NCBI GenBank assembly: GCA_963677765.1
Contig: OY782392.1
Span: 750,001-782,000, forward strand
Source of the DNA: Candidatus Saccharimonadota bacterium
Lineage (GTDB): Bacteria > Patescibacteriota > Gracilibacteria > BD1-5 > UBA6164
Direction of reading: 5' to 3'
DNA: 32,000 bases
Positions 478 to 23,523 of the stretch are shown piece after piece; the first letter of the stretch is position 1; every line of letters starts with the position of its first letter. The position numbers and the translations under genes were made by a program. The notes under the pieces were generated by a model. That model saw only the letters and a list, made by a program, of their open reading frames with translations. It had not been told where the DNA came from and searched no databases.

Positions 478-1029
478 ATGTTAGAAAAAGAAATAAAAAT
501 ATTAGATATAGATAAAAGGTCTGTGGAAGAAAAATTATTAAAACTAGGTGCAATTAAGACTTTTGACTGATTTATTCATGATATTTACTATGATTTTCCA
601 GATTGAGATAATATGAAAATGGAAGAAAATAAGAGGTTATTTAGAGTGAGAAAAAAATGAGAAGAACATCTATATACAATAAAAAGAAAAAGAAATAAAA
701 AAAGTGAAGGTTGAGAAAAATGAGTAAAAGTAGCAGATGAATGAGAAAATACTATAACTGATGTTGAAAGTTTCACAAAGGTTTTAGAAAAATATTGAAT
801 GACTAAAACAAGAGAAAAAATGAAGCATAGAACATCTTATAAATTATGAAATATAGAATTTGATATTGATGATTATGAATGAATTCCTACTCTTATAGAA
901 ATTGAGGCTCCAAGTTCTTCAGATATAAAAGAATATATATCATTATTAAATCTAGATAATCATATACAAAAGAAGTTTTGATCGAGAAAATTATATGAAT
1001 ATTATTGATTAGAATATAAATATTTATAA
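478..1029 (+). CDS. CYTH-domain protein (triphosphate tunnel metalloenzyme, CyaB/ThTPase-like), 183 aa
   Basis: ATG 478 to TAA 1027-1029. The N-terminal ExExK signature is present (MLEKEIKILDID). Later strands rich in alternating charged residues (FRVRKKGEEHLYTIKRK, IEFDIDDYEGIPTLIEIE) are typical of CYTH barrels. Confidence 0.7.
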
Positions 1030-1059
1030 AAAACAACTAATTAAAATAGTTGTTTTTTT
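1029..1059 (+). terminator. Intrinsic terminator after the CYTH gene
   Basis: Stem aaaaacaacta (1029-1039) pairs with tagttgttttt (1047-1057) and is followed by T residues. Confidence 0.6.
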
Positions 1060-1070
1060 ATTTATAAATA

Positions 1071-1097
1071 AAAAAGTATCTTATTAAGATACTTTTT
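1071..1097 (-). terminator. Intrinsic terminator of the VTC-like gene (perfect 12-bp stem)
   Basis: aaaaagtatctt (1071-1082) pairs with aagatacttttt (1086-1097) around a 3-nt loop. The stop codon of the minus-strand gene (1084-1086) sits at the loop. Confidence 0.6.
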
Positions 1098-1947
1098 TTG
1101 TTATTTCATTTGTTATATGTTTTGTTATATCATTTAGAGAACCTTTTCTTTTTTTATTAGATATTGTTTCCATTCTAATTTTTTTGATTTGTTCCATTGT
1201 TTCTTTAAATGTATCAAATTTTTCTGCTAATCATGAATAAACAACTCATAGAGAATATTTGCTACAACTTTTTGCCTTATCTATATTGTGTGTTTTCATT
1301 ATTTCACAAGCTTGACAGTCTTCTTTTAATGATTTACTTTCTATTATAACAAGATTTTTTAAATCAACTATCTTTGCTCATTTTTTTCTTAAGTCAGTTG
1401 CTTTTATATCAAAATCAATAGTTAATCTTTCTTCTCAGTTTTTACTAACCATTGTTATTCTTTTATAGTTTGTCTTTATAGAAGGAGATATTTCAGGTGC
1501 TTTTTCACCAGAATATACACTTTGCCATACTCAATCAAAGAACCTTTTTTTACCTCTAGTCATGAAACCATGTTCTTCAGAAGGAAATTGATATCTATAT
1601 TTACTTGTTATTCCATCGTTTTTTTGTTTATATTCAAAAAATGCTAAATTTGAATCTACATAATATCTTGTTCTAACTTTTGTTCTAGATTTTAATTTAT
1701 TTTGATGTTGATTATAAAATAGATAATCTTTTGTATCCATATATACATTATCATATTCAAAAACTTTTTTTCAGGCAATTTCTAATACTTGAAATTGATC
1801 TTTTAAATCACTAAGTATATCTGAAAATTGTTTTGAATTAAGTAGAAATTTTCTATCAATTCTTTTTAAAAAACTTGCTGTAGAATTTAATTCAGTTAAA
1901 GTTATTGGTTTAAAACTTTTTAGTTTATCGTTAAATTTAGGAGCCAT
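1084..1947 (-). CDS. VTC-domain protein (polyphosphate-polymerase-like TTM fold), 287 aa
   Basis: ATG at 1947, TAA at 1086-1084, and no in-frame TAA/TAG on checking. The sequence FKPITLTELNSTASFLKRIDRKFLL...VLEIAGKKVFEYDNVYMDTKDYLFYNQHQNKLKSRTKVRTRYY...FFEYKQK matches the bacterial VTC-domain pattern as I remember it. Confidence 0.65.
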
Positions 1948-1996
1948 ATTACTTCAGGGGGGTTAGTTTTTATTTTTGTTTTTGTATTACTTATTT

Positions 1997-2025
1997 ATTT
2001 TATCATATAAGATTTTTTAGGTCAA
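1997..2025 (-). promoter_or_regulatory. Candidate sigma70-type promoter for the VTC-like gene
   Basis: On the minus strand the pattern is TTGACC (2025-2020), a 17-nt spacer, then TAAAAT (2002-1997), about 45 nt upstream of ATG 1947. Confidence 0.35.
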
Positions 2026-2031
2026 AAAATT

Positions 2032-3351
2032 TTATATAAAATTTATTAAAATTATGTAAGTTAATCATGATATTATTCAAGCTATTGGTAGTGTAACTAT
2101 CCAAGATAGTATAATACCATTCATCATTCATTTTTTTATAACAACTTTATCTTTTCATTCAACATTTTTTTGATGCTGTCTATATAATCATATTCAAAAT
2201 ATTGCTCATAAGGCTATTTGAGTAGAGGAAACAGGTAGTCATAATTGAGAAGCAACCAATACTGTAGCAGCTGCAGATAATGCTACACAAAATGCTCTTA
2301 TTTGATCTAATTTAGTTATTTCACTTCATACAGTTTTTATAAGTCTTGCTCCAAAAGTAGCTAATCATATTGATAAACCTAATGCTCAAAATAGCATTAT
2401 CCAGAAAGGAACTCAAGCTGAATTTACTAATTCTATTCATCCATTTTTAATTGTTTCATTTATTGCTGCAAGTGGTCATATAGCATTAGCTACATCATTT
2501 GAACCATGTGCAAAACTTAATAATGCTACTGCAAATATCAGTGGAATATTAAAAAGTTTATTAATAAATTTTTTCTTATCTTTGAAAAACCATTCATTGT
2601 GTCTTTTATATAGAATTACTAATATCATATATGTTACAACTCATATAATTATTCATATAAAAGTTGATGTTGTAGGGTTTATAACTCAAGCTAGTAATTC
2701 ATTAGATTTTAATAAAGGTTTTAAACCTTTCATCATAAGATATATTGAAAATATAGTCATCATTAATGCTACATAAACAGGTACCCAATGTTTAGCCGCT
2801 TCTCATCTATTTTTTCTATCTAATATTGTTTTTCTAACAGAGATATATAGTAAAACTGATATTACTCATCATATTATTAATGATATTATCCAGCTTGCAA
2901 CTATTTCTCATATTTTATCCCAATATACAATTGATACTCATTCAGCTACCAATCATGCTCATATTAAACCTCATATAATTGAGTTTGTTGTAGATATAGG
3001 GGCTCTAAAAAAAGTTGCAATATTTAACCATAATGCTGCTCCTAACAATGTCGAAAGCATTATAAATATAAATTCTCTAGAGTCATTTATCATGCTTTGA
3101 TCTATTATTCATCATTTGATAGTATCTACTACATCTCATCAAGCTATTAATGCTCATCAAGCTTCAAAAATAGCAGCTATAAAAATTGCGGCTCATAGTG
3201 TTATTGCTTTTGATCAAACGGCAGGTCACATATTGTTTGCTACATCATTTGCTCATAAGTTCATTGCCATATATATAGCAAAAACAGTAGCTATTAATAA
3301 GTATAAATTATTATTTCATCATTGAAAAAAATATACATATGAAACTCACAT
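2032..3351 (-). CDS. pit: PiT-family inorganic phosphate transporter, 439 aa
   Basis: ATG 3351, TAA 2034-2032, frame checked open. Both PHO4 signatures are present (NLGANDVANNMGPAVGSKAIT and FAHGSNDVANAIGPLAA), with many TGA-encoded Gly in transmembrane segments. Confidence 0.9.
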
Positions 3352-3483
3352 TATTATGGAAAATCATAGGAATAAATATTTTAATGAATGAATATATTCA
3401 TCTTTTACATTAATAGTAATTTTCATTTTTTTCTTATTATTTTTAAATTTCTATTAAATATTACCATTTTAAAAAATAAAACA

Positions 3484-4724: not shown

Positions 4725-6629
4725 ATGAGATTAGAAAGATATAAACAAATTAAAAAAATCTGATTGAATAGAAATGATTTAAAGTTTCAATTATCTGAAA
4801 TTAATGAATCAATTATTGAAGAAATTGGTAATGATATTATAAAAGAGTATCTAACAAAAAAGATAGTAGATTGAAGATTGAGAATGGATCAACTAGATGA
4901 TATAAAATTCAAAATGCTAAAACTAGAATGATTGGATTATCAAAGAGATATTTCTATATATAATTTATTGTATTCAATTTTATTGAATAATATATTGTTA
5001 CCTGATTATTCTAATTCTTGGAACAAAGAAGATATTTTTTCTGAGTTTGATAATATATTAGAAAGAGTTAATTCTAGAACTTCAAGAATTCTTGAATCTA
5101 TGAATAATAGAGGTTTTTTCAATATAAGTGTATGAAATCATGAAGAAATAGAAAATGAAATTGAATGATTTAATAATAATTGATGATATATTCAATATAG
5201 AAATTTTTCTCTTAATTGAGCTTTTTGATTTGTACATATATGAGAAAATACAGAGAATGATTGAAAATATACTTTTAGAATACCTATTAGAATTCCTGGT
5301 TGAATAAAGCAAAAGGCATGAGAAAAATCAACTTTAGATAATAATGTTGATATAGAATTGATTGAAAGTATTTTATCTAAATATTTTAATTGAAAAAATT
5401 GAACTAGAAATATTGCAAAATCTTCAAAAGATTTTAAGTGATTAGAGGATTATTATATATCTATAAAAAGATCTTTAAATAAAGATTTTTCATATTGATC
5501 TGATGATTCTTCTACTTATTTTGTTATTGATATATTAAATAAAAAACTAAAAAATATAAGTGATCCTATATATGAAACGAAAGATATTATAAATTTTTTA
5601 GAATGATTTTTTAAGATAGCTAATGTTTTAATAAATGATATAGCAAATAAATCTTGAATACATCATAAGAAAAAATATTTAAATTTTTCTACTATGTATG
5701 TTTACAATGAAGAAAAATCTAATTGAAATGATTTAACTTTAGATAAATCTACTTTAGATAAATTTTCTAAATTACTAGTTGAAATGAAGAGGCAGGTATT
5801 ATTAGATGATATCTGATGACAAGAAGAAGCAAAAGAAGAAATTTCAAAAATAATCAAATCTATACAACATGAAGAGATAATGAGGTCATGGTGAGCAAAA
5901 ACTACTACTTGAATTATATTTGAATGACCTCCTTGAACTTGAAAAACTTTATTAGCACAAGCTATTGCTACAGAAGTAAATGCACAAGTTTATAATATAA
6001 AACTTACAGATATAGCTTCTAGTGCTTATATAAATGAATGATCTAATAATTTAAAAGAACTTTTTAAATTTTTGAGATATCAAGCATCTAAAACAAATAA
6101 AAAAATAATTGTTATACTAGATGAGCTTGATGCATTATTTAAAAAAAGGGATTCTGATAAAAATTCTTGAGAAGATACAAAGATTGTTAATACATTTTTA
6201 ACAGAAATGTCATGATTTGATGATATAGATAATATAATATTTATATGAACAACTAATCATGTTGACGAGTTAGATAGTGCTGTTATTAGGTCTTGAAGAA
6301 TGTCAACAAAAGTAAAAGTTTGAATGCCGGATTTTAATTCTAGAAAGCAAATATTTGATATACATATTAATAAATCAAAATCTAAATCTAAAAAATCTGA
6401 AGAAGCTTTTAATTGATTAGATATAGATGAACTATCAAAAAAATCAGACTGACTTTCTTGAGCAGATATAGAAGAAGTTATAAGACAAGTTATAGAAAAA
6501 AAAGCTTTAGAAGAGGTTGATAAATGAGAATTTTCTAAAATTAAACAAGAAGATATTTTATTTTTTATAAAAAAGATAAAGTCCGAATCAAAATCTAATA
6601 AATTACCTACTATTGGTTTTATTCAATAA
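4725..6629 (+). CDS. Classic-clade AAA+ ATPase with an uncharacterised N-terminal region of about 390 aa, 634 aa
   Basis: ATG 4725 to TAA 6627-6629. Walker A is IIFEGPPGTGKTLLA, Walker B is IIVILDELD, and the second region of homology is IGTTNHVDELDSAVIRSGRMSTKVKVGMPD. There is no transmembrane segment and no HEXXH protease domain. Confidence 0.85.
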
Positions 6630-7386: not shown

Positions 7387-8673
7387 ATGACACAATTTTC
7401 TCCAGTTAATTGAACTTTTGATATTTTTCCTGATTCACATAGATATTTAACTTTTTTAAAAAAAGTATATCGTCATGAATTTAGAAAAAATGGTTTTAGA
7501 AGAATTTCAACTTCTATTTTAGAAAAAAAAGATCTTATTAAAAAATCTTGATTTTTAAATGACTGTATAATAAATGGAGAAGATTTTGATTTGAATCAAA
7601 CACCATCATTATGAATATTTAGAGCTTATCTAAATAATGAGGTATATAATGAAATTCAACCAGTTTATTATTATTATATGCAACAAATTCATAAAAAACA
7701 AAATGATTGAAATATTAAATCTATAGAAACTATTTGAGCTGATATAATAGGTGAAAATGATCCAATTTTAGATGCTATACAAATATATTTAAATTATACT
7801 GTTCTAAAAAAAATTTGATTAGATTGAAAATTTGAGATAAAAGTTAACTCTATTTGAGTTGAAAAAGAAAAAATTAAATATAGAGAAGAGTTAGTTACAT
7901 TTTATGATAATAAAAGACATTTATTAACTCAAGAATCTCAAGATTTAATAGATATTGATCCTATGATGATTTTGAATTCTCAAGAAGAAGATGAAAAAAT
8001 ATTAAATGAAAGTGTTCCTCCAATGTCTCCTAAGTTTTTAAAAAAAGATAGTAAGGCTCATTATATAAAATTTAAAGAATATTTAGATTTACTTGAAATT
8101 CCTTATGTTGAAGATAAAACTTTAGTATGAGACTCATTAGTACAAACTAATACTGTATGGCAAATAAATAATTTAGATTGAGAAATTATAACAAAATGAT
8201 ATAGATATAATTCTATAGCTAAAAATCTATGAGAATCAAAAGAAGTACCAGCAGCAGGTTTTTATACTGATACTATGCTTTTGATAAAAATGTTAATGGA
8301 TGAATGAATAAAAATAAAAAATAAAGATAAAATAGATTTATTTTTTGTTCAATTATGAGATGAAGCTAAATCAGTTGTTTTACCATTATCTATAAAAGCA
8401 AGAGAAGCATGAATAAATACTGTTGTTTCTCTGTGAACTCCTTCTATGAAAGAGCAAATATTAAAAGCTCAAAGGTCAAATGCTAGATATATTGTTATGG
8501 TTGGTATAATGGAAGCTAGAAATGGTATTTTTCAAGTTAGAAATGAAGTTGAATGAACTCAAGCTGAAGTTAAAAAAGAAGAACTAATAGATTATATTAT
8601 ATCAAAGATATGAGAAGAAAATTTAGATTTTTACTCTCCTGAAAGAGATTTAATAATAAAAAAAGAAGACTAA
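7387..8673 (+). CDS. hisS: Histidyl-tRNA synthetase-like protein (class II core plus HGTP anticodon-binding domain), 428 aa, with catalytic motifs divergent
   Basis: ATG 7387 to TAA 8671-8673, frame checked open. Seen: N-terminal NGTFDIFP, KVNSIG, PAAGF, and a C-terminal anticodon-binding-like IDLFFVQLGDEA...ARYIVMVGIMEARNGIFQVRN. See the finding on missing motifs. Confidence 0.7.
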
Positions 8674-8690
8674 TTTAGTCTTCTTTTTTA
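8659..8690. terminator. Bidirectional terminator shared by hisS-like (+) and the Cys-rich exoprotein gene (-)
   Basis: aagaagacta (8663-8672) pairs with tagtcttctt (8676-8685). The hisS stop lies inside the stem-loop, and the opposing stop is at 8688-8690. Confidence 0.6.
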
Positions 8691-10886
8691 TTCTATTATT
8701 GTAATTACGTTTCATTTTATTGAGTTTCAAGTTTTTCAATCCATCCAGCTTCATTGAATTTTTATTCATGGAGCAAATAATATTGGATCATGTCTTAGAT
8801 AATTTTCCCAAGTTCAATTGCTTGAATTATATGTCCATCATTTAAGATTTTTCATATATTTATATTTTGATTTATCATCACAATAATTAGGGTTAATTGC
8901 TGTAGGCACATAAGGATGTGCTATAACATTTTGACAAGATTTAGCATTTTCATAATCAAGTCAATAAATTGTATATTTAATAAAATCTCATGATTTTGTT
9001 ACACTTAATGTATTTTTTGATTGATTTGCTTTTATTTCATTTTCTTGTTTTCAAGAGTAAGTTCTATCATTACAATTAACAACTCATCATTTTACCCAAG
9101 AGTAATTTTGTTTTATTACACATCATCATACTATCCATGGATTTTTTCATTCATAATCTCTAGAAAAACTATAAATTGCTGGATTTCACTTTTCTCAGTT
9201 ATAAGGTCACCATGAACCTTCATAATAAGTTGGTCATGTCCATTTAGGTATAGTCATAGTTTTTGAATACATAGATACAATATCTGATGCTCATCTAGAT
9301 CACATTGCCATTCTTATTATATCTAATCTAATTTTATTAGTAGTTTCTTCTCAGTATGTTTTTTCTAGTTCTGTCCAGTCTATTCATGAATTATAATGTA
9401 CTCAAGGAGTATTTATTAAGTAATAAACTGCTTGTTCTACTGTTTTAGCTTTATATCTAGTATAGAAACAATTATTTGGATTTGAAAATTCTCATGTTGA
9501 ATCAATTGTATACCATGGTCAATATATTTTTTCTCAATTTTGGTTTTTAATAACTATTCTATAGCTACCAGGTACTGTTAATGGATTATCTTGTAATCTA
9601 GTATAGTTTTGCCAATATCATCTAGAATTTTCCCATCAACTTAAACTTGTTATGCTTTTAAAATCTGAATCACTACAAGTAAAATTGTCATTTTTTCTAT
9701 TAGGATTATCTATTTTAAACTCTTTACATACTTTTATGTTTTCACTATTTGTCCAAATTTGATTTGTTAAGCTTGCTCAGGCTGAAGAACAATTGTTCAT
9801 TGAACTTCAATAGTAATCTATTTTTATATCTGTTTCTTTTCTTTCACAGCTATATAGATAATCTCAATATATACAACTAGATCATATATTTGAACATGAA
9901 TCTCATTCTTTATATGTTTTTCAACAATTTGGTGGAGCAGGTGAAAAACTTACTCATCAACTATACTTTATTGACCATATTCAAGTGTTATTATTTTGAT
10001 TATTATCATTATCAATTTTATTTTCACAAGTAGTTTTAGATGTATATATTTCTTGAGGAACAGGTGGAGCTGGGCTAAATTGAGGTTCAGAAAAGTCAAA
10101 TCTTCAGTTATTACAATAAAGTTTTTCTATACTACAAGAATTATTATCTGGAGTATATAAATTAATACTAGTTCAACTTTCTATTGTTTTCTTGTCACTA
10201 GTTATACATTGATTATTGTTTATTGATATTTCACTTTGATTACTATCTTCACTATCTTTACATTCTTGAAGAGTATCATAAAGTTTTATATTTGAGTCTG
10301 GTTTAGGTGGAGCTGGGCTAAATTGTGGTCACCAATATAGTTTTCATCAATCACAATTAAAATTTGCCCATACACAAGCCGTTCATGTTTTATAATATTT
10401 TGTTTTTGATTTATCACATGAACCATAATTTGAATTGTTTATTTCATTTTCTGTTCATGAACTATTATTATCTCATTCTTCAAATTCAAGAGTTATTTCT
10501 TGTTTTATATTATTTTCTTCATCACAGTTTCATGATAACTTACATAAGAATTCTTCTAAATTTTCATCGCTAGTTGAGCTAATTTTTAATTCAGATATTT
10601 CAAAATATAGGTATCATATAAGATTTTTTAATTTTGAATTATTTTCATATTTTTTTTCAATTCTATTTAATTGTACTAATAAGTTTTCAATCATAGAATT
10701 ATATTTATCTTCACTCATATTAGATTTTTTTTGTTCAATATTATAAACAAAAGAATCAACATTATTTTTTATGGAAGAGCTTACATTATTTTCATATGGA
10801 TTTGTATTAGCATATGAAATATTTAAAAATATAAAAAATATAAAAATTATATTAAAAATATTTTTTAAAAATCACCTAATTATCAT
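8688..10886 (-). CDS. Secreted Cys-rich protein of unknown function, 732 aa
   Basis: ATG 10886 and TAA 8690-8688. All 733 codons were checked and none is TAA or TAG, and the frame is closed 4 codons upstream of the ATG. A signal-peptide-like N-terminus (MIIRGFLKNIFNIIFIFFIFLNISYA) is present, with about two dozen Cys and three PQFSPAPP-type modules. Confidence 0.75.
10062..10082 (-). repeat. GC-rich 21-mer aggtggagctgggctaaattg, copy A (encodes QFSPAPP on the minus strand)
   Basis: This sequence is identical to 10305-10325. It stands out against the AT-rich background. Confidence 0.9.
10305..10325 (-). repeat. GC-rich 21-mer aggtggagctgggctaaattg, copy B
   Basis: This sequence is identical to 10062-10082. 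A degenerate third copy, ggtggagcaggtgaaaaact, lies at 9931-9950. Confidence 0.9.
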
Positions 10887-10957
10887 AATATAAGGGGATT
10901 AAATAAATAAGTATTTTATATTTTATCTATTTATTTTAAAAAAAAAGAAAAACTTCT

Positions 10958-11560
10958 TTACGTTTTCCTTTTTTTATTTATAAAACCAAATAAACTTATA
11001 GAAATTAATATAGTTATAAGTAATATTAAAATTTCATTTGTTCATGTTTTTGGTAATTCTTTTATTTCACTAGATACTTTTATAATAGTATCTCATTTTA
11101 TTCTTTGTTCATCGTTTTTTGTTTCTCATATTATATTTGATAGAGTTTTTTCATCTTCTATAATATATCAAAACTCTTTAATTTGTTTTAACTCTTTTTC
11201 AGTATATCACTTTGCTTTATTTTCTTTTTCTTCTACTTCTGGTGCAGAATTTAATTCTATTTCATCAGGATTTTCTACTATATTATGTTCACTTTTTTCT
11301 GTATTATCTTTTTTTCAACAATCATTATCATAATAACTTTTAGTATAATCTCAATCTGGACAGTAGTCTTTTTTTAATGTTATATTTCATCAACCTCCTC
11401 CACTTCATCAACTTCATCAAGAGTTATCAGTGTTTGTAGTTTCTTCTGCAGGTATATTATTATTTAGTATTATAAAATTATCTGAGACAATATCGTAATT
11501 AGCACTTGTTGTATTAAATATAAGTATACTAACAATAGTTATAATTTTTATTTTTTTCAT
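10958..11560 (-). CDS. LPXTG-anchored surface protein, 200 aa
   Basis: ATG 11560, TAA 10960-10958, frame checked open. It has a signal peptide (MKKIKIITIVSILIFNTTSA), a Gly/Ser linker (SGGSGGSGGGGG) and a C-terminal LPKTG, followed by a hydrophobic stretch (NEILILLITILISISLFGFI) and a basic tail (NKKRKT). Confidence 0.8.
11042..11056 (-). other. Sortase sorting motif LPKTG (tta cca aaa aca tga)
   Basis: The motif reads directly in frame, and its Gly is a TGA codon. Confidence 0.8.
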
Positions 11561-11570
11561 GTTTTATATT

Positions 11571-14333
11571 TTATTCAGCTATTAAGGTTTCAAATTTTTC
11601 TACATTGAATTCAATATCTAGTATATCAAAATCATTATTAACCAATCAATCAAATCCATAAATATAAAAACTTATATTTTTCATAATTGCTCAATATTCA
11701 CTATAATAATCTATAAGATTAGTTCAGTTAAAGTAATATCAAAAGAAGTCTATATCTTTTTTATTTCTGCATGACTCATTATTTTCTATATTTGATAAAT
11801 TATTTACTTTTTCTTTACATATGAATATTTTTTCTTCATTAATATTCTTAATATTTTCTCATTTTATATCTAAATTTATTCTATAGTTTGGTATTCAATA
11901 TCTTGATATACTATCATCGTTATTAAATACTATTATCTCTCTTTCAAATAATAATGATTCATTGTTGTTTTCAATAAACTTATGTATAACTGATAATTGA
12001 TTATTTTCAGATATTTTAGACTTTGTATTATTTTTTGATAATTCATCTATCTTTTTTATTTCTCAATTATATAAAAGTTTTTCATATAATTCTGTATTAT
12101 TATCAATATCTACAATATATATATTATTTATATTTTTTACTTCTTCTTTTGGTATCAATATAAAAATATCTTGTCCAAATTCAGGTAATATATATAGTAT
12201 TTTTTCTTTATTTTCATTATATAGTTCAATCTCATCTCTAATTTGATACATATTTTCATCTAAAGAAGGTCATTCTTCAAAATAATCAATAGATTTATTT
12301 AATTTTATTGCATTGTAATTATTGTTTATTTTAATTTCTTTTAAAATATCTTCTACTGAATTTTCTCAATCTTTTATTAATTCATTATTTTTTATAACAA
12401 AATGATAGTATTTATCTGATATTTTATTTAAAATTAGATTGTTTCAGCTTAATTCTAAATATTTTTTTAAATTTATCTCTTTTTCTAAGTTATTTTCTTT
12501 ATATATTTCTATTTTGTTTATTAGATTGTTATTATTTATATATATAGCTCAGTCAACTATTAATGATTTATTTCAATATCTATTTATTAACTCTATTTCA
12601 AAATATTTCATTAAAATGTCTTCTGAGAAAAATTCAGTTCATGTATCATTAATGGCATTTTCTTCTGCTATTGTAAATATTTCATCTAATTCTTCTTCTC
12701 AAATATTTTCTAATTGTATATATTCAGAATTATTATTTTTTATTTTTAAATTGTATTTATTATTGCTAGAATATAATACTTTATATATGTTTGAATCAAA
12801 TAATATATTTCAATTATTTAATTTTACAAAATCATAATATGAATCTTCTAAATAATATATATTATTTAATGTATAGGTTTTTTCTTTACTAAATATATCT
12901 TTATATTTTACATGCATATTTATTTCTCATAAAAACACTTCTTGATTTTCTAAGTAATTTTCTATCTCAGTATTATATTCATTTTCACATTCCCAATTTC
13001 ATATACAAGATTTGTCTCATGAATATATAAGATCTCAAGATGATGATTTTATTTCAAAATTAAGATATTCTATTTTATCTATAAAATCTTGAAATTCCCA
13101 TTTTATATCAAATCATCTATCTGTTATATTGTAAAATAACAATTCAAAACTTCAATATGCTCATATTTCTCAAGAGTGATTATAAAAAATATTATTGTTC
13201 ATTAAATAATTGTTTTCTTTAAAAACAGTGTCTATTTTTTTATTATAATATTTAGAGCAAAGATATTCTTCTTTTGATACTCATTCTAGCTCTATTTTAA
13301 ATATTCATTCTTCATTTATTTCTAAATTGAAAAAATTATTTGAATTTATATCTATAGAAAAATCATAGTTTTCAAAATTTTCTATATTTCAGTTATTATA
13401 TTTTTTTATATCAATGTTTAATTCTTTGAACTCAATTCATCAATATCAATATCATTCACTTATGTTTTCTAAGTAAAATTTATTATTAATTCTTTCATTT
13501 GATATTGCAAAATCAATATTATTTTCACAAAATGATTCATTAAATACTCTATAATTTTCTAAGTGTAAATCATATTTTCAAAACATGGCTATATCATAAC
13601 TTTCATAATATGGTTCTAATTCATCACTAATATATATAGATTTTAGTACTCAATTTTCATAGTTTGTATTAAATGCTCTTTCATAATTTGTTTGATTTAT
13701 AGCTATATTTTCTATTTCATTTTCGTCTATTAATAAATTTATTTCTTTATTTTCATCTAAAAAAATAATATTTTTATCAATCCTATTAGTTATATTTATA
13801 TCTATAATATTTGATTTAAAAAGTAATTCATAATTTGTTCTATCTTCAAAATTTATAGTTATTTTTTCAGGATAATATAAATATTCATTATTTTCATATT
13901 TATATTCTTGATATTCATAGTATCAATCTAAAATAGTTTTTTTAAATGAATTATAATAAATTTTTATATGTTTTATTCATTCTATATCTATTATTTCAAA
14001 ATTTAATTCATCTCAGTTAAAATCTTTTACACTAGTTATAGTTTTATCTGTATCTATTTTAAATTCATAATATAAGTATCTATCTAATTTTATATCATCA
14101 TAACTATATGTTTTTAAAAAATTTATAGGATTATTATAAAAATCATTTATTCTATTGTTTGAATAATACGATGTATTTTCTAATCTTAATTTTTGTTCAT
14201 CTAGTTTCTTATTTCATAAAAATACTCAATTTTCTAACTTCATGTTATCTATGTCTTCTATAATAATTGCATTAGCAATACATTGTATAAAAAAAGTTGA
14301 TATAAATATTATTAATAAAATTAATTTTTTCAT
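11571..14333 (-). CDS. Large secreted protein of unknown function, 920 aa (N/I/K/E/Y-rich)
   Basis: ATG 14333 and TAA 11573-11571. All 921 codons were checked and none is TAA or TAG. A signal-peptide-like N-terminus (MKKLILLIIFISTFFIQCIANA) is present. The gene ends 10 nt before the next gene's ATG. I recognise no domain. Confidence 0.75.
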
Positions 14334-14393: not shown

Positions 14394-14418
14394 ACAAAAA
14401 AACACCTCTAAAGGTGTT
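14394..14418 (-). terminator. Intrinsic terminator downstream of the tRNA
   Basis: aacacct (14401-14407) pairs with aggtgtt (14412-14418). On the minus strand a T-run follows (plus-strand A-run 14395-14400). Confidence 0.55.
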
Positions 14419-14432
14419 ATGTTCTGTGACAA

Positions 14433-14510
14433 TGGTGCACCCGGCAGGGATCGAACCCACGACTGACCTAGGTTCGCGGCCTAGCGCTCTTCCAACTGAG
14501 CTACGGATGC
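14433..14510 (-). tRNA. tRNA-Arg with encoded CCA; the hand-folded anticodon is GCG
   Basis: This GC-rich island in AT-rich DNA reads, on the minus strand, GCATCCGTAGCTCAGTTGGAAGAGCGCTAGGCCGCGAACCTAGGTCAGTCGTGGGTTCGATCCCTGCCGGGTGCACCA. The acceptor and D arms are nearly identical to E. coli tRNA-Arg(ACG). A20, C35 and G36 are present, and the T-loop is GTTCGATCC. Confidence 0.85.
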
Positions 14511-14626: not shown

Positions 14627-15433
14627 ATGATGAATTTTGAAAAAGGAGTAGATAATAGTATATTATCTAGGTATGATAAAGTTTATGCCAAGCTAGAACC
14701 AATAGTTACTGATACATTAGAGTTATATTCTAATGAAATACTTTTTAGATTGGATTCAAAAAATACACATATAAAAGTATTAGATGAATTAAGAGAAAAA
14801 AAAGAGACTTTTTCTCTTTTTATGAGGATGTCAAAAAGAGCATTTTTAGAGGTTGAAAAAACATGACTATCTGTTAATTTAAATATGGAAGTAGATGATA
14901 TATTGGATTCTAACTTTATAGAATATTTAACTCTTTTAACTCAGATTCATGATATAGATAACTCAAAAATAAATTTTGAGTTAGTTGAAACAGAGGATAT
15001 TCCTAATGAGTTTAAGGATATTATTATATCTAAAATTAAGCAATTAAGTGATATGTGATTTTTATTTAGTATAGATGATTTATACTCTTGATATTCAAAT
15101 AAAGAAAGAATAGATATCTTATTATCACTTTGAGTAAAAATATCTATTGTAAAAGTAGATTGAAAGTTTTTAAAAGAAATGTATTCATCATACAAAAGTT
15201 GATTTGCTATGCCAGATATAATAAAGCATGATTGAGAAAAATATTTTAAATATAGTTTGAATGATTTTGATGATTTTAGAAATTATCTAAAAACCCTTCA
15301 TTATAAATGAATAAAAGTTGTTGCAGAACGGATTGAAAATGAAGAAATTTTTGATTTTGCAAAAGAACTATGATTTGATTATTACCAATGATATTATATT
15401 CAAAATATAAATTCAAGTGTAAGGGAAATATAA
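14627..15433 (+). CDS. Stand-alone EAL-domain protein (putative c-di-GMP phosphodiesterase), 268 aa
   Basis: ATG 14627 to TAA 15431-15433. The EAL-family landmarks appear in order: EPIV...NEILFR, SVNLN, ELVETE, SIDDLYSGYSN, VKVDGKF, VVAERIENEE, ELGFDYYQGYY. Confidence 0.7.
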
Positions 15434-15435
15434 AA

Positions 15436-15465
15436 AATAACCAATTTTTATTGGTTATTTTTTTA
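15436..15465 (+). terminator. Intrinsic terminator after the EAL gene
   Basis: aataaccaat (15436-15445) pairs with attggttatt (15450-15459), followed by a T-run. Confidence 0.65.
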
Positions 15466-15510
15466 TTATTTATATAATAATTATTAGTTAAAAATAAATA
15501 AATATGAGTA

Positions 15511-17157
15511 ATGGAAAAAATTAGTTTAAAATGAAACTTGGTTAAATATAATAAAGAAACATTAAATAAAAAAATAGATGAAATAATTTCAAAAAGATTT
15601 GAAAATTGAGAATTTTTCACTAAGTCTGATTTAAAAGATTTACATGATCCATATTTGCTTGTAGATATGAAAAAAGCAGTTGATAGAATAAAATTAGCTC
15701 ATAAAAACTCTCAAAGAATAATGATATTTTGAGATTATGATGTTGATTGAGTTACTTCAACAAGTATACTTATGCATTTATTTAAAAAACTATGAATGCA
15801 AGCAAGTTATAGAATACCACATAGAATAAAGGATTGATATTGATTAAAAAAGTACTTTATAGATGAGTTAGAATCATTATGAGTTGATCTTATTGTTACT
15901 GTTGATTGTTGAACTCGTGATGTTGAAGTAGTTAAGTATGCAAAAGAGAAATGAATTGATGTTATAATAACAGACCATCATGCTGTACCAGATATTATTC
16001 CTGAAGAGGCTATTGCTGTAATAAATCCTAAAAGACCTGATTGTGAATATATTTATAAAAACTTAGCTTGAGCTTGAGTTGCTTTTAAATTGATGCAAGC
16101 CTTAGCTTATGAGTTTATGAATGAAAAAGAAGCATTTGAGTATATAAAAGAATCAGTTGATATAGCTGCAATATGAACAGTAGCTGACTGTATGAGATTA
16201 ACTGGTGAAAATAGACTTATTGTTATGGAATGATTAAAACAAATTAAAAAATCAAGAAGTTTATGAATTAGGAAACTGATTGAGGATAAGATTAATGATG
16301 ACCTTGATGCAGATTTATTTTGATTTACAATTTGACCTAGAATTAATGCTGCAGGTAGAATGGATACTGCATATAAAGCAGTTAACTTAATATTGAATAA
16401 TTCAAGCTCAATTGATAAAACTATAAGTGAAATAGAACAACTAAATGAACAAAGAAAATATTTAACTAAAGAGTTTACTAATGATGCTCTAAATAAAGTT
16501 AATAAAGAAGATAATCTTTTATTTTATATTTCTCCGGCTATAGAGCATGGTATTATATGAATAGTTGCAGGTAGAATTACTGAGCAGTTTTATAAACCTT
16601 GTATATGTCTAAAAGATGAATGAGATAAATTAGTAGCTAGTTGTAGAAGTCCAGAATATCATTCTATAATAGAAACTTTAGATTGATACAAAGATTATTT
16701 TTTAGCTTATTGATGACATAAACAAGCAGCTTGATTTTCAATAAGTAAGGATAAATTTAGTGAATTCAAAACAAAAATAATTAATGAATTAAATAAAAAA
16801 GACTTTAGTAGATATAAAAAAGAAATAAAAGTTGATAAATTAGTTAAGTTAGAAGAATTAGGTTTTAATTTTTTAAAAGAAGTTAATAAATATAAGCCTT
16901 TTTGAATTTGAAATGAAAAACCATTATTTATGGTTGAGAATTTGGATTATGATAAATTAGATTTTATATGAAAATGAAGAGATCATCTTAGGTTTACAAC
17001 AAAACATTGATATAAAATTTTTGCTTTTTATATGTGAGATTATTACGAACAAATAAAAAGAAGCTGAATAAAACCAAGTTTGATTTTTGATATAAGTGAA
17101 GACTCTTGGATGTGAAGAAAAAATCTTATGTTAAAAGTTGTTGATATAGTATTATAA
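15511..17157 (+). CDS. recJ: RecJ single-stranded-DNA-specific 5'-3' exonuclease, 548 aa
   Basis: ATG 15511 to TAA 15155+2000..17157 is stated simply as TAA 17155-17157. DHH motifs seen: IFGDYDVDGVTS, VTVDCG, IITDHH. The DHHA1 motif GGHKQAAG is also present. Confidence 0.9.
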
Positions 17158-17167
17158 ATATTTTATT

Positions 17168-17647
17168 ATGGAAATATCACAAAAAATAATTGATTATGCA
17201 ATATGGTATTATTTAAAATACTATCCTTCTAAAAGAAAGTTAAAAAGAAAATTGATAGAAAAATTTTGAATAAACTCTGAAAATGGTCAAAAATATTGAT
17301 GAATTTGAGATGAAGAAATAGATTATATATTTGATTATAAAATGTCTTCTATTATAGATGAAAAAGCAGTTATATTATCAAAAATTAGAGTTTTTAAAAA
17401 TAAATGAAAATCAAAAATTTATATTAAACAAAAGCTTTATGAAAGATTAGAACCAAAAGATTTAATAGAAGAGCTTTTAGAACAAGAATTTTTAGATTGA
17501 GAATTAGAAGTTTTAAAAAATGAATATCACAAGTTAAAAACAAAGATTAGAAATTATGTAAGTGAAAATGATTATAAACAAAAAATTATACAAAAATTAA
17601 TGATGAAGTGATTTAAATATGATGATATAAAAGAGGTAATTAAATAA
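17168..17647 (+). CDS. recX: RecX-family regulatory protein, 159 aa
   Basis: ATG 17168, 10 nt after the recJ stop, to TAA 17645-17647. It has a RecX-like start (AIWYYLKYYPSKRKLKRKLIEKFG) and end (IIQKLMMKGFKYDDIKEVIK). Confidence 0.6.
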
Positions 17648-17721
17648 TAAAAACATTATTTTAAATTGTAAAATAGCTTATTTTAGATAAAGTAAATACA
17701 ATTATTTATAACTATAAGTAT

Positions 17722-18966
17722 ATGTCTAAAACAATTATTTGTCCTAATTGTTCTACTAGTATAGACTTGGATCAAGTTGCAAATCAAAAATATAATGAAC
17801 TTTTGAAACAACAAGAACAAAAACTTAGAGAAGAACAAGCAAAACAAAAGGAGGCTTTTGAAAAAGAGTTAGAAGAAAAAACTTCTGAAATGAGAAAAAA
17901 AGCTCAAGAATATGCTGAAAAAAAAGCATCTGAAGCAAAAAAAGAAATGGAATTAGAATTAAAAGATGTTCAAGATCAATTACAAAAAGCTCAAAAAGAT
18001 AGAGAAGAGGCAAGAAAAAAAGAATTAGATTTTTTAAAAAAGCAAAGAGAGTTAGAAGATAAAGAAAAAAACTTTGAGCTTGAAATGGAAAAAAAGCTTT
18101 TTGAAGAGAGAAAAAATATAGAAAAAGCTTTAGAGGAAAAAATGAAAGAGTCTTCTAAAAAAGAAATGGAAGAAAAACTAGAAAAAATGTCTGAGGACTT
18201 TAGAAAAAAAGAGCTTGAAAATTACAAGCAACAAGAGCAAATGAGAAAAACGATAGATGATTTAAAAAGAAAGGCTGAACAATGAAGTCAACAAATTCAA
18301 TGAGATATAAGTGAAGATGATTTAAAAAATAGTCTATCTATTTCTTTTCCATATGATGATATAGAGGATGTTCCTACTTGAGTAAAATGAGCTGATTTAA
18401 TACAAACTATAAGAGATAATCTATGACAAAATGCTTGAATAATAGTTTGGGAATCAAAAAATACAAAATCATGGCAAGATGCTTGGATTATGAAACTAAA
18501 AGATGATAAGCTAAAAATAAATTGAAATATTGCAGTTTTAGTTACTAGTGTTTTACCAAAATGAATTAAGCACTTTTGACTTATTGATGATGTTATGGTT
18601 TGTACTCCTGATTTTGCTATACATGTATGATGAATGTTGAGAGATAAGTTATTATCTATATCAAAAGTTGAAAAATCTTTGGAATGAAAAGATGCAAAAA
18701 TGGAAATGTTATATAAATATTTATCAAGTGAAGAATTTTCTAGTAAAATGAATATGATGATAGATGTTTTTGTAAATTTAAAAGCATGAATTGATTCAGA
18801 AAGAAGAGCTATGGAAAAGAACTGGAAAAAAAGAGAAAAAGACTTAGAAAGAGCTACTTTTGCTGTTAGTTGAATGTATTGAGAACTTGAAAGTCTTATG
18901 TGACAAAGCTTGCCATGATCAAAAATGATGGAGCTTGAGTGACCTGATGAAGATGATTTAGATTAA
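17722..18966 (+). CDS. DUF2130-family protein (CxxC, a long K/E coiled coil and a conserved C-terminal domain), 414 aa
   Basis: ATG 17722 to TAA 18964-18966. It starts MSKTIICPNCSTSIDLD, followed by about 170 aa of coiled coil. The C-terminal part reads GSQQIQGDISEDDL...FPYDDIEDVPTGVKGADLIQ...GIIVWESKNTKSWQDAWIMKLKDD. Confidence 0.7.
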
Positions 18967-18978
18967 TAAAATTAAATA

Positions 18979-19392
18979 ATGTCTGATAAAATATCTATGG
19001 ACTTTGATGGTAGAATACCAAAGTTTAGAAGAAAAATATTGCAAAATATAATAATAGATAGAAAGAGTAAGTATAGCGTTGTAGGATGATTCATAAACTC
19101 TAAGGAAAGCTTAGAATTGTTTATGAAGGAATTACTATCTGATAAATATTTTATAAAATCAACACACAATAGTTATGCATATAGAATAAAACTAGATAAC
19201 TGATCTATTTTGGAATGAAAAAATGATGATTGAGAAACTTGAGCATGAATGTGTATTTTGAGAGAGTTACAAAGAGAGAATATGGTAAATACTATAGTTG
19301 TAGTGACAAGATATTTTTGATGAATTCATTTACAATCAGATAGATTCAAAAATGTTATAGAGTGAACAAAATTAATATTAAAAGAAATTTAA
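18979..19392 (+). CDS. yigZ: IMPACT/YigZ-family (UPF0029) protein, 137 aa
   Basis: ATG 18979 to TAA 19390-19392. Matching segments: IIDRKSKYSVVG, KSTHNSYAYRI, NDDGETGAG, VVVTRYFGGIHLQSDRF. Confidence 0.75.
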
Positions 19393-19395
19393 TTT

Positions 19396-20052
19396 ATGAA
19401 AATAATAAAAAGTCTTTGAAAAAAAATAACTTTAAAAATTGATGAAACAGGAGAGTTAATCGTAAAATCTCCAGTTTTTGCTAGTAAAAAAACTATTCAA
19501 GAATTTATAGAAAAAAATAAAGATTGGATTAGTGAAAAAAAACAAGAAGCAATAGAAAAAATAAAAGAATTTAGAGAATGAGAAAAGTTTTATTTTTTCT
19601 GACAAGAGTACGAGTTAGTTTTTGATGATAAAAGTGAGGATATATATTATGATTGATTAAAGCTTTATTTACACAAAAGACATAAAATAGTTGTAAAAGA
19701 AAAATTAGTAGATTTTTATAAAAAAGAGGCTAGAAAATATATAGTACCTAGATTAAAAGAAATAGCTGAAAAAAATAATCTTAAATATAATATTGTAAAA
19801 ATAACTAGTGCTAAAACTAGATGGTGAAGTTGTACTAATAAAAAGAACTTAAACTTTACTTATAGATTGGTTATGGCTCCAACTAGATCAATTGATTATG
19901 TCTTAATACATGAATTAGCTCATTTAAAATATATGGATCACTCTGCTAAATTTTGGGATTATGTACAAGAATTAAGTAGTTCTATGTATCCTTGAAGTTA
20001 TAAAATAAATGAGCAGTGGTTAAAGCAAAATGGCTCTAAAATTATGTACTAG
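19396..20052 (+). CDS. YgjP-like (DUF45/SprT-like) zinc metallohydrolase, 218 aa
   Basis: ATG 19396, 3 nt after the yigZ stop, to TAG 20050-20052, the only TAG stop in the window. Motifs seen: TRWGSC and DYVLIHELAHLKYMDHSAKFW. Confidence 0.75.
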
Positions 20053-20138
20053 CTTTTTAACAATGTTTAAACATTTTTATTAGTTTTTAACAAAAATGTT
20101 TAAAAAATGTGAACATTATATTTATTAAAAAATATTAA

Positions 20139-20771
20139 ATGGAAATCAACAAGTCTTTAATAGAAGATTTTAATAATAAAACATCTAAAATTTTAGCTGT
20201 TACTAAATATTTTAATATTGATGAAACAAATAATATAGCTTCTATTTTATCAACTGAGTATTCAGATTATATAGTTTGATTATGAGAAAATAGAGTTAAT
20301 TCATTAAAAGAAAAAGGTTTAGATAGGGAATCAACACATTTTATATGAAATATACAAACTAAAGAAATAAAACATATAATAAAACATTGTATGTATATTC
20401 ATAGTGTAGATGATATAAAACAATTATACAAAATGGAAGATATTTGCTCTAAATCATGAAATTGGGTTCAAATATTTTTACAAATAAATCTTGATGAATC
20501 AAAACCAGGTTGAATTAAAAAAGAAGATATACCTAAATATTTAGATATAATAGGTGAGTTAGAAAATGTAAGTTTAATTTGATTTTCTGCTATTTGAAAA
20601 AGTGAATTTAATTATGAAGAAAAACAAAATGAATTTTTATTATTAAAAGAACTTAGAAATAAATATTTACAAAATGGTCTCATATCAGCTTGAACATCAG
20701 TTGATTATAAAATAGCTTTAGAAAATGAAATTGATATTATAAGAATATGAACTAAATTATTTAATTTATAA
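20139..20771 (+). CDS. yggS: YggS-family pyridoxal-phosphate-binding protein, 210 aa
   Basis: ATG 20139 to TAA 20769-20771. Motifs seen: ILAVTKY (PLP lysine), GENRVNS, HFIGNIQTKEIK, IHSVD, LIGFSAIG, ISAGTSVDY, IIRIGTKLF. Confidence 0.8.
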
Positions 20772-20775
20772 TTTT

Positions 20776-21408
20776 ATGAAAAAACAAATATTATTTATAT
20801 GATGATGAGAAGCATTAGAAAACTTATATGATAAAAAATTTATTGAAAATAAAATGAAATTTTATTCTGAAGAATTTAATTTTGATCCATTTCAAGAAAG
20901 AAAGTATAACTGGAAAGATAATTTAGCTTTGGAAATAGAAAATGACTTTGATTTTATAAAAATGTATAGACCTTTATCAGATAGTGCTATTTATGATTTA
21001 TGGAAATTATCATTTGAAAAAACTATTAATTATTTAAATGACGACTTTATTTTGATATGACATAGTCTTTGAGCTATTTTTATATTAAAGTATTTATCTG
21101 AAAATAAATTTAATTATAATAAAATTAAAAACATATATTTAATATCTACACCATTTAAAGATAGTGATGATGAAAAACTTGGAACTTTTTCAATTGATGA
21201 CTCATTGTTTAAAAATATTGAACATATAGAAAATAAATTAATTTTCTTTCATAGTAGAGATGATAATATTGTATCTATAGAGGATTTTTATGAATATAAA
21301 AATTATTTTTCTAATTCTAGTTTTTATGAGTTTGATAATTATGGTCATTTTATTTTTAATGAACATTTTATAGAATTATTAGATTTATTAAAAAAAGAAA
21401 ACATATAA
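20776..21408 (+). CDS. Alpha/beta serine hydrolase (YdeN/RBBP9-like), 210 aa
   Basis: ATG 20776, 4 nt after the yggS stop, to TAA 21406-21408. The nucleophile elbow is LIGHSLGA, the acid is FFHSRDDNIVS and the His is NYGHF. Confidence 0.65.
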
Positions 21409-21437
21409 AAAAGACAGATTATAATCTGTCTTTTTTA
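21407..21437. terminator. Bidirectional terminator between the hydrolase gene (+) and the 186-aa gene (-)
   Basis: aaaagacagatt (21409-21420) pairs with aatctgtctttt (21424-21435) around the loop ata. The minus-strand stop at 21435-21437 lies at its edge. Confidence 0.65.
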
Positions 21438-21995
21438 TATGTTTTTAAAACTATCTATTTTTGCTTCTCATTTTACTATTAGATATATGTGATATGGAGA
21501 TTGAATTATTCATTTTCATATATTATATAGTCCATCTAATCAAGCGTAAATACTATTAGCACTTCATAAAGCAAATCATAATATATGCTCATGAATCAAT
21601 TTTGGATTTTTAGCTGTATTTATAAGTTTTTCTGGTAAAAATTTTTCAATTTCATTTGTTATATTATTTATATCAAGATTCTTTTCTATATCATCTTTTA
21701 GTGACATTATTTCAATATGAACTTTATTTTCAATTGATTCTTGAGCTCATTTTAATATTAAGAAAAGTTTTTCTTGTTCTTGATTTTTTAGTTTATCGAA
21801 AAAATCATTTCATGATTTATTTAATTCTATTTTTAATTGTTCTAATCATCTAGAAGTATCAAATTTTATCAACTCTTTTGTTTTTGATTTTTCAATTCAA
21901 TAATTTTTAGATATTTCATTAGATAGTTCTTCTAACAAAATATCTTTATTGTCTTTTTTTTGTTCAAAAGTAGAATTATTTTTTTCAATACTCAT
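21435..21995 (-). CDS. Hypothetical protein, 186 aa
   Basis: ATG 21995, 10 nt after the upstream TPR gene's stop, to TAA 21437-21435; frame checked open. The N-terminal two thirds are helical and charged, and the C-terminal part is glycine-rich (GFALGSANSIYAGLDGLYNIGKGII). I recognise no family. Confidence 0.55.
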
Positions 21996-22005
21996 TTTTT
22001 ATTTA

Positions 22006-23523
22006 TTATTTTTTATTATTCATCTTTTTTAGAGTTTGATCAATCCAATATTCTATAGTTTCTTGATATTCTCTATTTTTATCTAAATCTAATGATTTTT
22101 TAAAACTTTTCAATGCATCTTCATAATTTTCTTTTTTTGATTGATAAATTCAGTTTACCATTTGTATCATTGGGTTTTCAGGATTTATCTCTATTCATTT
22201 TTTTATATTTGTTTCAATTATTCTTTCTTGTATTGTACTTATTTCTTCTTTTTGTAACATTATCCATGCATGGTATCAGTAAAAAATTTCTGATTCTTTA
22301 AATTTCGTTTTTGCTTTTTCACTTATTATGGCTGCATTATCAAGGTCTCCATTTATTATATGATAATAAACTGCTAGGTGAAAATCTCTTATATTTAGTT
22401 TATCTGATTCTAATTCTACTAGCTCTCTAAATGTTTTTAGCATTTTTTCTCTATCATCTATTTCAAAATATATAAAAATTAATCTTCTTTTTATATCTTC
22501 TATATCACTATATCATATATTTATAGCTTTACTAAAATGTATAACACTAAGTACATATTCATTTAATTTTTCATAAACTCTTCATGTAAAATAACTCATT
22601 TCTGGGTCTTTTGTTTCAATTTTATTATATTCTATCAAAAAATCTCTAGCTTCTATATAGTTTCAAAGTTCGTAAGCGCTTTTTGCTGCTATTTTTAATA
22701 CAGGTTTATATCATTTGTTTTCATTTAAAATATTTTTTGATGTTTCTAAAGCTACTTTATAAAATCAATTTTGATAATAAGCTCAGCTTATTAAAGCTGC
22801 TTTATAAACTAAATCATCAATTTGAAAATTCTCATAGTTAACAAAAGCATTATTTATTGTTTCTAAATTTTCATTTAATTCAATTTTTGTAGTATTATCT
22901 TCATTATTGTTATCTTCTTCTATTTTTTGGAAAAAATCTTGAAATTTTTGTCTACAAAGTGAAAAATCTTGAGTACAAGTTATAGAGTTTTTATAATAAA
23001 AGTTATCTTGTTCACTAAAATTAAAGCTATCAATTTCATTATTTATATCTCTTATACTTCATGTATTTGTTATATCTACAGAGTTTATATAACTATAAAG
23101 TGCAATTTTTTTATCTATTTGAGGGTAGTCTTTTATATTTGAATAAAACTCATATGCTCTAGAATAGTTTCATAATTTATAATATATATCTCATATTTTT
23201 TTATTTACTTCCTTATCTCAAGGAACATTTCTATATACTTGTAAATATTGTGTAAGAGCAGTAGTATATTCTTTATTTGAGAAATATAAATCTCATCTTG
23301 TTATTAAACCTTTTAATTCAATTTTTTTTCTTAATTCTTCTAGTCTTTTATTTGCTTCTTTTGAATCATTTTTATTGTTTTCTTCTTCTAATTCTTTTTC
23401 TATATTATCTAAATATCAGTCACTATACTCTATAATTCATTCATTTGTTTGAGTATTATTACAGCTATTTAATAAAAAAGATAGAATTATAAAAATAACA
23501 ATACTAAAAATTTTTTTATTCAT
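22006..23523 (-). CDS. TPR-repeat lipoprotein, 505 aa
   Basis: ATG 23523, TAA 22008-22006, frame checked open. The lipobox is MNKKIFSIVIFIILSFLLNSC. There are repeated TPR-like units (GDLYFSNKEYTTALTQYLQVY, GDIYYKLGNYSRAYEFY, AKSAYELGNYIEARDFL, NGIYQSKKENYEDALKSFKKSLDLD). Confidence 0.7.

Follow-up and report, generated by a model that had tools for sequence, protein, structure and literature searches.

A putative surface-protein locus of a code-25 Patescibacterium: a conserved gene pair with an LPXTG-type sorting signal and a variable third gene

Introduction

In Ruminococcus flavefaciens, the sortase-anchored scaffoldin ScaE holds the large secreted protein ScaB and the cellulosome. Hardly any Patescibacteria with genetic code 25 have been brought into culture, and little is known of how they attach to their hosts except by type IV pili, which are the established attachment system of bacteria belonging to the candidate phyla radiation (CPR). 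Large surface proteins are an established theme in code-25 CPR bacteria: these small-genome organisms invest in such proteins, which are thought to mediate host contact, and those of Vampirococcus lugosii and other CPR bear known interaction domains (PKD, integrin, fibronectin and WD40) and are membrane-localised giants of 1392-4163 aa (PMC8080830; 10.1101/595074). Here we describe a locus of three genes, named A, B and C, in a stretch of 32,000 nt (hereafter the window) that covers positions 750,001 to 782,000 of contig OY782392.1 (forward strand; assembly GCA_963677765.1, Candidatus Saccharimonadota bacterium). The analysis itself placed the organism no further than a code-25 Patescibacterium, and its lifestyle is an assumption. 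A sequence-only reading of the window had presented the three genes as a single operon and as a candidate module for contact with a host or prey. Comparison with related loci points instead to a conserved A-B pair, of which C is an accessory neighbour.

Results

Conserved and variable genes of the locus

When UGA is read as sense (table 25), A (11571..14333, 920 aa), B (10958..11560, 200 aa) and C (8688..10886, 732 aa) lie one after the other on the minus strand. A and B are separated by a 10-nt spacer that contains no hairpin (11561..11570, minus strand), and B and C by 71 nt. The three genes span 5646 bp, which is 17.6% of the window. These coordinates, lengths and spacers, as well as the share of about 18 percent, agree with the sequence-only reading.

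A homology search with B revealed a relative, P0034, that is 47% identical to it and is found at loci L009 to L011, which are syntenic with the window over the whole neighbourhood. In L009 the order is tRNA-Arg(GCG), a hairpin, a gene for an A-like protein (934 aa, 44% identical to A), a spacer of 18 nt, a gene for a B-like protein (213 aa, 58% identical to B), a bidirectional hairpin and the convergent HisRS gene; C is absent from this locus in L009 to L011. The adjacency of A and B (10 to 18 nt), with the tRNA-Arg gene upstream, is kept in the window, in L003 and in L009 to L011, and each of the three lineages in which these genes were found has both. The complete trio was found only in L001 and L003, both close relatives, and C-like genes of other code-25 genomes (L004/L005, L006/L008 and L007) stand alone, with neither A nor B nearby. 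Since C is missing from L009 and its relatives elsewhere occur by themselves, the conserved unit is the A-B pair and C is an accessory neighbour. The proposed three-gene operon thus fails in the syntenic relative; what stood of the expected co-occurrence is that the trio is preserved in L001 and L003.

Directly upstream of A lies the tRNA-Arg gene (anticodon GCG; 14433..14510, minus strand; found with ARAGORN and scored at 52.4 bits by Rfam RF00005), which is kept in L009, and a hairpin followed by a T-run (14401..14418, minus strand; terminator scan and sequence) closes the tRNA transcript and sets off the A-B unit on its upstream side. At the other end, a bidirectional terminator hairpin with a GAAGACTAAATTAGTCTTC core (8659..8689; terminator scan) is common to the locus and the convergent HisRS gene. 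This hairpin matches positions ~10640-10675 of L009 nearly base for base. In L009 it directly follows B (GAAGACTAAA/TTAGTCTTC), whereas in the window it closes C, so that, set against L009, the window has C and the 71 nt upstream of it between the stop codon of B and the shared terminator. From this arrangement we infer that C was inserted in the lineage of the window, the alternative being a loss in the lineage of L009.

A further hairpin, a candidate terminator or attenuator built from an A-tract and a T-tract, was found between B and C (10940..10975, minus strand; RNA fold z = -2.76). Its stem measures 14 bp, its loop contains the stop codon of B, and a T-run comes after it; comparison with L001 and L003 gives 97% conservation of the B-C spacer. 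The earlier statement that no terminator occurs before 8659-8690 therefore holds for GC-dependent scans, which detected no strong one over the length of A, B and C and are blind to AT-rich hairpins, but may not extend to this AT-rich candidate. Judged from the layout, A and B are probably co-transcribed, given their short spacer free of hairpins, and C probably forms a transcription unit of its own. A promoter scan was uninformative, with 93 sites found against 84 expected in DNA of 22% GC.

The identity of the L009 lineage to the window is 83% for HisRS, 91% for RecJ and 78% for MurG. Compared with these neighbours (78-91%), the values of 44% for A and 58% for B mean fast divergence, which is typical of surface-exposed proteins. 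The ratio of nonsynonymous to synonymous substitution rates (dN/dS) was calculated against orthologs on the metagenomic contigs L001/L002 and L003, with dS reaching up to 0.6. It was 0.23 for A (74% identity), 0.23-0.31 for B (86-90%) and 0.13 for C (91%), next to 0.11 for HisRS (92.5%). These values show that A, B and C are real genes under purifying selection.

Export signals

Signal peptides were judged by rules, namely hydropathy and a cleavage motif of small residues. Each of the three proteins has one hydrophobic N-terminal segment, which is followed by ANA/I in A, TSA/N in B and SYA/N in C (the slash marks the predicted cleavage), so that the signal peptides would comprise residues 1-22 of A (14268-14333), 1-20 of B and 1-26 of C. 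That of B starts with MKKIK and continues with a hydrophobic core whose maximum 11-residue hydropathy is 2.69. No further membrane-like segment was seen in A or C. The mature proteins contain even numbers of Cys (six in A, two in B and 22 in C), as expected of disulfide-bonded extracellular proteins. Export of A, B and C via Sec is thus well supported as a prediction, and both the signal-peptide-like N-termini of all three proteins and the Cys-rich nature of C, as first noticed in the sequence, were confirmed.

Protein B and its sorting signal

The C-terminus of B reads LPKTG-TNEILILLITILISISLFGFI-NKKRKT. The LPKTG motif (residues 169-173, 11042-11056), whose Gly is encoded by TGA, precedes a 21-residue hydrophobic stretch and a KKRKT tail (10961-11041). 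This region scored 24.6 bits against PF00746 (cut-off 20) and 24.1 bits against TIGR01167 (cut-off 15.9). Both curated cut-offs are passed, in agreement with the first description of B as LPKTG-anchored, and membership of B in the LPXTG family is well supported by sequence criteria. The codon for the Gly of the motif is TGA in the window and GGN in the relative P0034, a swap that bears out the code and the motif alike from within the data. The sorting signal is kept in L001, L003 and L009. Among 283 open reading frames (ORFs) scanned in code-25 loci, the B orthologs bear the only true sorting signals; the sole other match to the pattern is the C-terminus of a membrane protein. Processing of B by a sortase is what the signal would imply, and MurG, a protein of peptidoglycan synthesis, is encoded in the window. 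Literature searches gave no paper on sortases in code-25 lineages.

The mature protein would have a mass of ~17 kDa and a pI of 4.5. From the N-terminus, it consists of a conserved tip, a Gly run encoded mostly by TGA codons (residues 47-58, 11387-11422), a two-Cys loop with the conserved Cys 67 and 81, a variable acidic linker and a strongly conserved segment of ~50 residues (residues 118-166, 11063-11209) that adjoins LPKTG. A DNA pattern for B that takes code 25 into account recovered only the already known L001 and seven chance matches.

Protein A

Mature A is a protein of 107 kDa with an acidic pI of 4.5 and no anchor. Its six Cys are invariant over the three orthologs, down to 44% identity. 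The N-terminus, the middle and the C-terminus are conserved, most of all residues 835-920 (11574-11831), and the most variable stretch covers residues 601-780 (11994-12533).

Word-indexed search, genome-collection scan and metagenome scan gave no relatives of A beyond three close lineages. Neither A nor C has a match in Pfam, NCBIfam, PHROGs or PDB sequences, and a three-sequence profile of A found nothing in PDB or Pfam. The absence of recognisable domains in A and C, as originally reported, was therefore borne out for these collections, and no homology to intracellular enzymes emerged for either protein. The AlphaFold2 (AF2) model of A had a predicted local distance difference test (pLDDT) score of 30.6. 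In profile-profile comparison, A and C matched each other in their signal peptides only. By these sequence comparisons, A is unrelated to C and is a lineage-restricted orphan.

Protein C and its modular family

An exhaustive HMMER search yielded a family of 28 proteins, which align with C in differing regions and have no known Pfam domain in common. Small iterated hidden Markov models (HMMs) resolved five modules. The first is a helical bundle (residues 34-122, 10521-10787), found in 12 proteins with differing C-terminal parts. It is followed by a module of ~55 aa with four Cys that ends in QFSPAPPxP, here called the FSPAPP module, which occurs 15 times in 10 proteins and is present in C in two full copies (residues 158-210, 10257-10415; residues 235-288, 10023-10184) and in a degenerate third one that ends at residue 321. 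Next come a first Ig-like beta-module (residues 363-462, 9501-9800), a central domain (residues 473-612, 9051-9470) and a second Ig-like beta-module (residues 631-728, 8703-8996). The two beta-modules are mutually homologous according to the iterated HMMs; BLAST self-comparison gave no internal repeats. Seven members of the set contain the central domain, the close ortholog C_L003 included; the rest of these seven are stored as translations that have Trp for Gly. Neither sequence nor profile searches found a relative of this domain in PDB, and a lysozyme-like identity, considered because of its invariant Glu and Asp and its alpha-rich prediction, is possible but was not adopted, no sequence or profile support having been found. 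C has no module in common with A or B.

Neither C nor the C-family profile gave a significant match in PDB. In the AF2 model of C, the helical bundle and the C-terminal beta-domain reached pLDDT values of ~93 and ~94, respectively, and the first beta-domain, which is confident in part, 67-89. A Foldseek search of this model against PDB gave RbmA as the best match (E = 4e-3), followed by Ig V domains, that is, generic Ig/FnIII-like sandwiches only; viral models gave no match. The predicted structures show that the beta-modules of C adopt Ig-like sandwich folds.

The C orthologs of L001 (1178-4039) and L003 (3636-6509) contain an extra FISUMP-like module of 226 aa after residue 126. This module is an indel between C proteins that are 91% identical elsewhere, the C of the window being the one without it. 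It scored 26.5 bits against TIGR02145 (cut-off 41.65) and 21.4 bits against PF09603 (cut-off 33.9), with significant E-values of 8.7e-6 and 3e-4; most of the model is covered, at scores below the curated cut-offs. The module content of C thus varies among close relatives, as expected of a surface protein of the binding or adhesin type, and the Ig-like modules together with the FISUMP-like module of the orthologs fit such a role for C.

A scan of a genome collection for C gave one match, a metagenome-assembled genome labelled "Patescibacteria group". The beta-module of C was also seen in standard-code proteins with lipoprotein-like 'FQNC' N-termini (P0021-P0025, P0029 and P0032; P0021 at locus L020). 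Beside the C-like gene of L007, a region of 6.5 kb (14697-21207) has no called genes and, under table 25, no ORF of more than 200 aa in any frame; an rRNA operon or some other non-coding element might account for it.

Genetic code and surrounding genes

The window has a GC content of 21.8%. It contains four ORFs of at least 150 aa under table 11 and 34 under table 25. UGA stands for Gly and not for Trp, as TGA is found at the invariant Gly of the Walker A motif GPPGTGKT, of GGGTGGH in MurG and of the ABC signature LSGGEKQR, and TGA accounts for 462 of the 531 Gly codons of the window (87%). The code-25 reading was hence sound, the window being coding only if UGA is sense. In the public protein database that was searched, the window proteins P0001 and P0003, and likewise their relatives, are stored as table-4 translations, in which Trp replaces Gly, and the best database matches of window proteins (93-96% identity) are the window's own proteins in this form. 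Such storage lowers the sensitivity of homology searches and means that structure prediction is run on the wrong sequence.

Family searches of the window proteins identified CYTH, VTC, PHO4, MurG, an AAA ATPase, PAP2 and HisRS on one flank, and an EAL protein, RecJ, RecX, DUF2130 and YgjP on the other; the surroundings are accordingly of the housekeeping type, as had been said at the outset. A prophage or mobile-element origin of the locus was rejected, because the prophage search gave no PHROG match in A, B or C and housekeeping synteny extends on both flanks.

Divergent from the A-B cassette, a gene for a stand-alone EAL protein of the c-di-GMP phosphodiesterase type was found at 14627-15433 (plus strand), with the motifs EILFR, DDLYSGYS and QGY present. 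It has an equivalent position in L009, where the protein is only 57% identical. As c-di-GMP signalling frequently governs surface adhesins, it is conceivable that the EAL protein is tied to the A-B cassette.

Several other genes were recorded. The CYTH, VTC and PHO4 phosphate transporter genes form a cluster at 478-3426 that is kept in L009 and resembles a module for triphosphate or polyphosphate and phosphate uptake in a very reduced genome. The AAA+ ATPase (634 aa, 4725-6629, plus strand), also kept in the syntenic L009, has no family match over its first ~350 residues. A TPR-repeat protein of 505 aa (22006-23523, minus strand) has a lipoprotein-like N-terminus (…SFLLNSC), and the next gene encodes a 186-aa ORF with no family match (21435-21995). 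Finally, a PilC/GspF-type platform protein is encoded at 30104-31225 (minus strand; T2SSF domain, E = 5e-45), next to a further ORF at 31254-31736 (minus strand); the T2SSF-domain protein indicates that type IV pilus machinery lies close by.

Discussion

Proposed organisation of the locus

The reading that we favour, and to which we give about an even chance of being right, is that of a conserved A-B cassette, made of a tether and an anchorless exoprotein, plus a separately acquired adhesin-like protein C. A and B would be transcribed together from just downstream of the tRNA-Arg gene, and both proteins would be exported by Sec. A sortase would then cleave B at LPKT/G and link it covalently to peptidoglycan. 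A would be a large, acidic, anchorless exoprotein with stabilising disulfides, tethered to the cell surface or displayed on it by B. As A is anchorless and always encoded 10-18 nt upstream of B, its retention or display by B is the most economical reading. C would be a separate, secreted mosaic protein of the binding type, from a family that is scattered through code-25 Patescibacteria. A role of the locus in adhesion or in contact with a host or prey is conjectural.

Several observations weigh against the favoured reading. No sortase was found among the window proteins or in the Pfam calls of the related loci, including the 20-kb L009. An interaction of A with B is hypothetical, and, given the AF2 pLDDT of 30.6, an enzymatic or toxin fold of A is possible. 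As regards C, its AF2 model was computed from a sequence with Trp for Gly and an alignment of 28 sequences, the fold matches are weak (Foldseek gave nothing at E<=1e-3 in PDB), and the poorly modelled central domain is predicted to be alpha-rich and has an invariant Glu484 and Asp503. Moreover, no window of 60 codons in A or C has a dN/dS above 1.

Alternative explanations

One alternative gives A a structural role in the envelope, as an S-layer-like protein or part of a wall matrix, with B as its wall tether, so that both would serve the cell's own surface without any host recognition. Surface layers and fibrous surfaces have been reported on CPR cells (PMC8080830; 10.1101/595074), which is consistent with this idea. 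The large size of A, its acidic pI of 4.5, its predicted export and its lack of an anchor point the same way, as do purifying selection along the whole protein and its conservation beside housekeeping genes that include the cell-wall genes MurG and PAP2. However, no SLH, CWB2 or other S-layer domain was found in A, B or C, and A, which occurs in very few lineages and diverges fast (44% as against 83-91% for neighbours), looks more like an interaction protein than like a core component of the envelope. Six conserved Cys are, besides, atypical of S-layer proteins. We consider an envelope role unlikely.

Somewhat less probable still is that A, C or both are released effectors, such as a lytic enzyme or a toxin acting on prey, with catalytic domains that have diverged beyond recognition, B being an unrelated wall protein that is adjacent by chance. 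A and C are indeed anchorless, residues 473-612 of C combine an alpha-rich prediction with the invariant Glu484 and Asp503, and secreted hydrolases have been proposed for a code-25 predator (PMC8080830). Against this, sequence and profile searches of Pfam, NCBIfam and PDB gave no enzyme or toxin family, the Foldseek matches listed for C comprise no enzyme or toxin fold, and in C the confident regions of the model form Ig-like sandwiches and one helical bundle. The tight linkage of A and B, kept at 44-58% identity, also argues against B as a chance neighbour.

A bolder version of the favoured reading appears to us just as doubtful. It takes the A-B pair as a lineage-specific attachment device of two components, in which a sortase-anchored B displays the anchorless, fast-evolving A, and A, with an entirely new fold, sets the choice of host cell for a code-25 episymbiont. 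C would then be a member of a polymorphic host-recognition family that extends across code-25 Patescibacteria and whose undescribed domains (the FSPAPP module and a new Ig-like family) are shuffled from genome to genome and shared with standard-code proteins of lipoprotein-like type.

The original interpretation of A, B and C as one operon, acting jointly as a module for attachment to host or prey, now seems rather improbable. The three genes are on the same strand with short spacers, all three products are predicted to be exported, the GC-based scan showed no strong terminator from A to the end of C, and the close relatives L001 and L003 keep the trio. Nevertheless, L009 to L011 are fully syntenic apart from lacking C, a hairpin with a T-run lies on the stop codon of B, other C-family genes are found without A or B, and C shares no module with either protein.

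That the ORFs are spurious or LPKTG a chance match in AT-rich sequence, as a GC content of 21.8% (which yields long ORFs and low-complexity proteins) and the want of homologs of A beyond close relatives might suggest, is already refuted by dN/dS values of 0.1-0.3 with dS up to 0.6, by collinear orthologs that retain the invariant Cys at 44% identity, and by conservation of the whole sorting signal (motif, hydrophobic stretch and basic tail), the sole true one among the 283 ORFs.

Significance of the locus

Taken together, these results describe a real but fairly ordinary surface-protein locus, one among many unannotated ones in such genomes. Its interest lies in the conserved A-B pairing, in the undescribed modules of the C family and in the storage of its proteins under the wrong code in the searched database; as table-4 translations are what that database holds, the locus may look more orphan than it is. 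If A and B are an exoprotein and its tether, the pair would be a concrete candidate for a surface structure other than the pilus, and the C family supplies defined new modules to seek across code-25 genomes.

Comparison with known systems

Sortase pilus operons such as SpaABC and RrgABC resemble the locus in being clusters of genes for exported proteins, including an LPXTG protein, with a large gene beside a small one. However, neither the window nor the 20-kb L009 encodes a class C sortase, A and C have no sorting signals, and no pilin or Cna-type Pfam domains are present. A sortase-assembled pilus operon was therefore rejected, on the grounds of the missing class C sortase and of the C-termini of A and C, which are not of the LPXTG type.

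With Vampirococcus lugosii, a code-25 predator, and with other CPR bacteria, the likeness is that of small genomes with large exported or surface proteins. Compared with the giants of those organisms, A and C are smaller and have no recognisable domain. For C, the structures nearest in fold are RbmA, a biofilm matrix protein of Vibrio cholerae (PDB 4be6 and 4kkp), and, more broadly, Ig/FnIII-like sandwich domains. Its two beta-modules are best matched by a tandem beta-sandwich architecture, but the match is weak (E = 4e-3, template modelling score of 0.28 on the target, 6% identity) and amounts to a generic resemblance of fold. The likeness to FISUMP/Fib_succ_major proteins (TIGR02145 and PF09603) concerns the C orthologs of L001 and L003 only and not the C of the window.

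Protein B corresponds to the LPXTG wall-anchored proteins of monoderm bacteria, which are substrates of sortase A, in having a signal peptide and a full tripartite sorting signal. It differs from them in that it comes from a code-25 Patescibacterium, that the Gly of its motif is encoded by UGA, that its passenger region (~150 aa) has no known domain and that a cognate sortase was not seen. As for ScaE of R. flavefaciens, no cohesin, dockerin or X-module was detected in A or B (Pfam/NCBIfam, E<=1), and the interaction of the two proteins is one that we infer. What the A-B pair would share with the ScaE system is its proposed logic, in which a small protein with an LPXTG anchor serves as the tether for a large secreted partner that lacks one and is encoded nearby.

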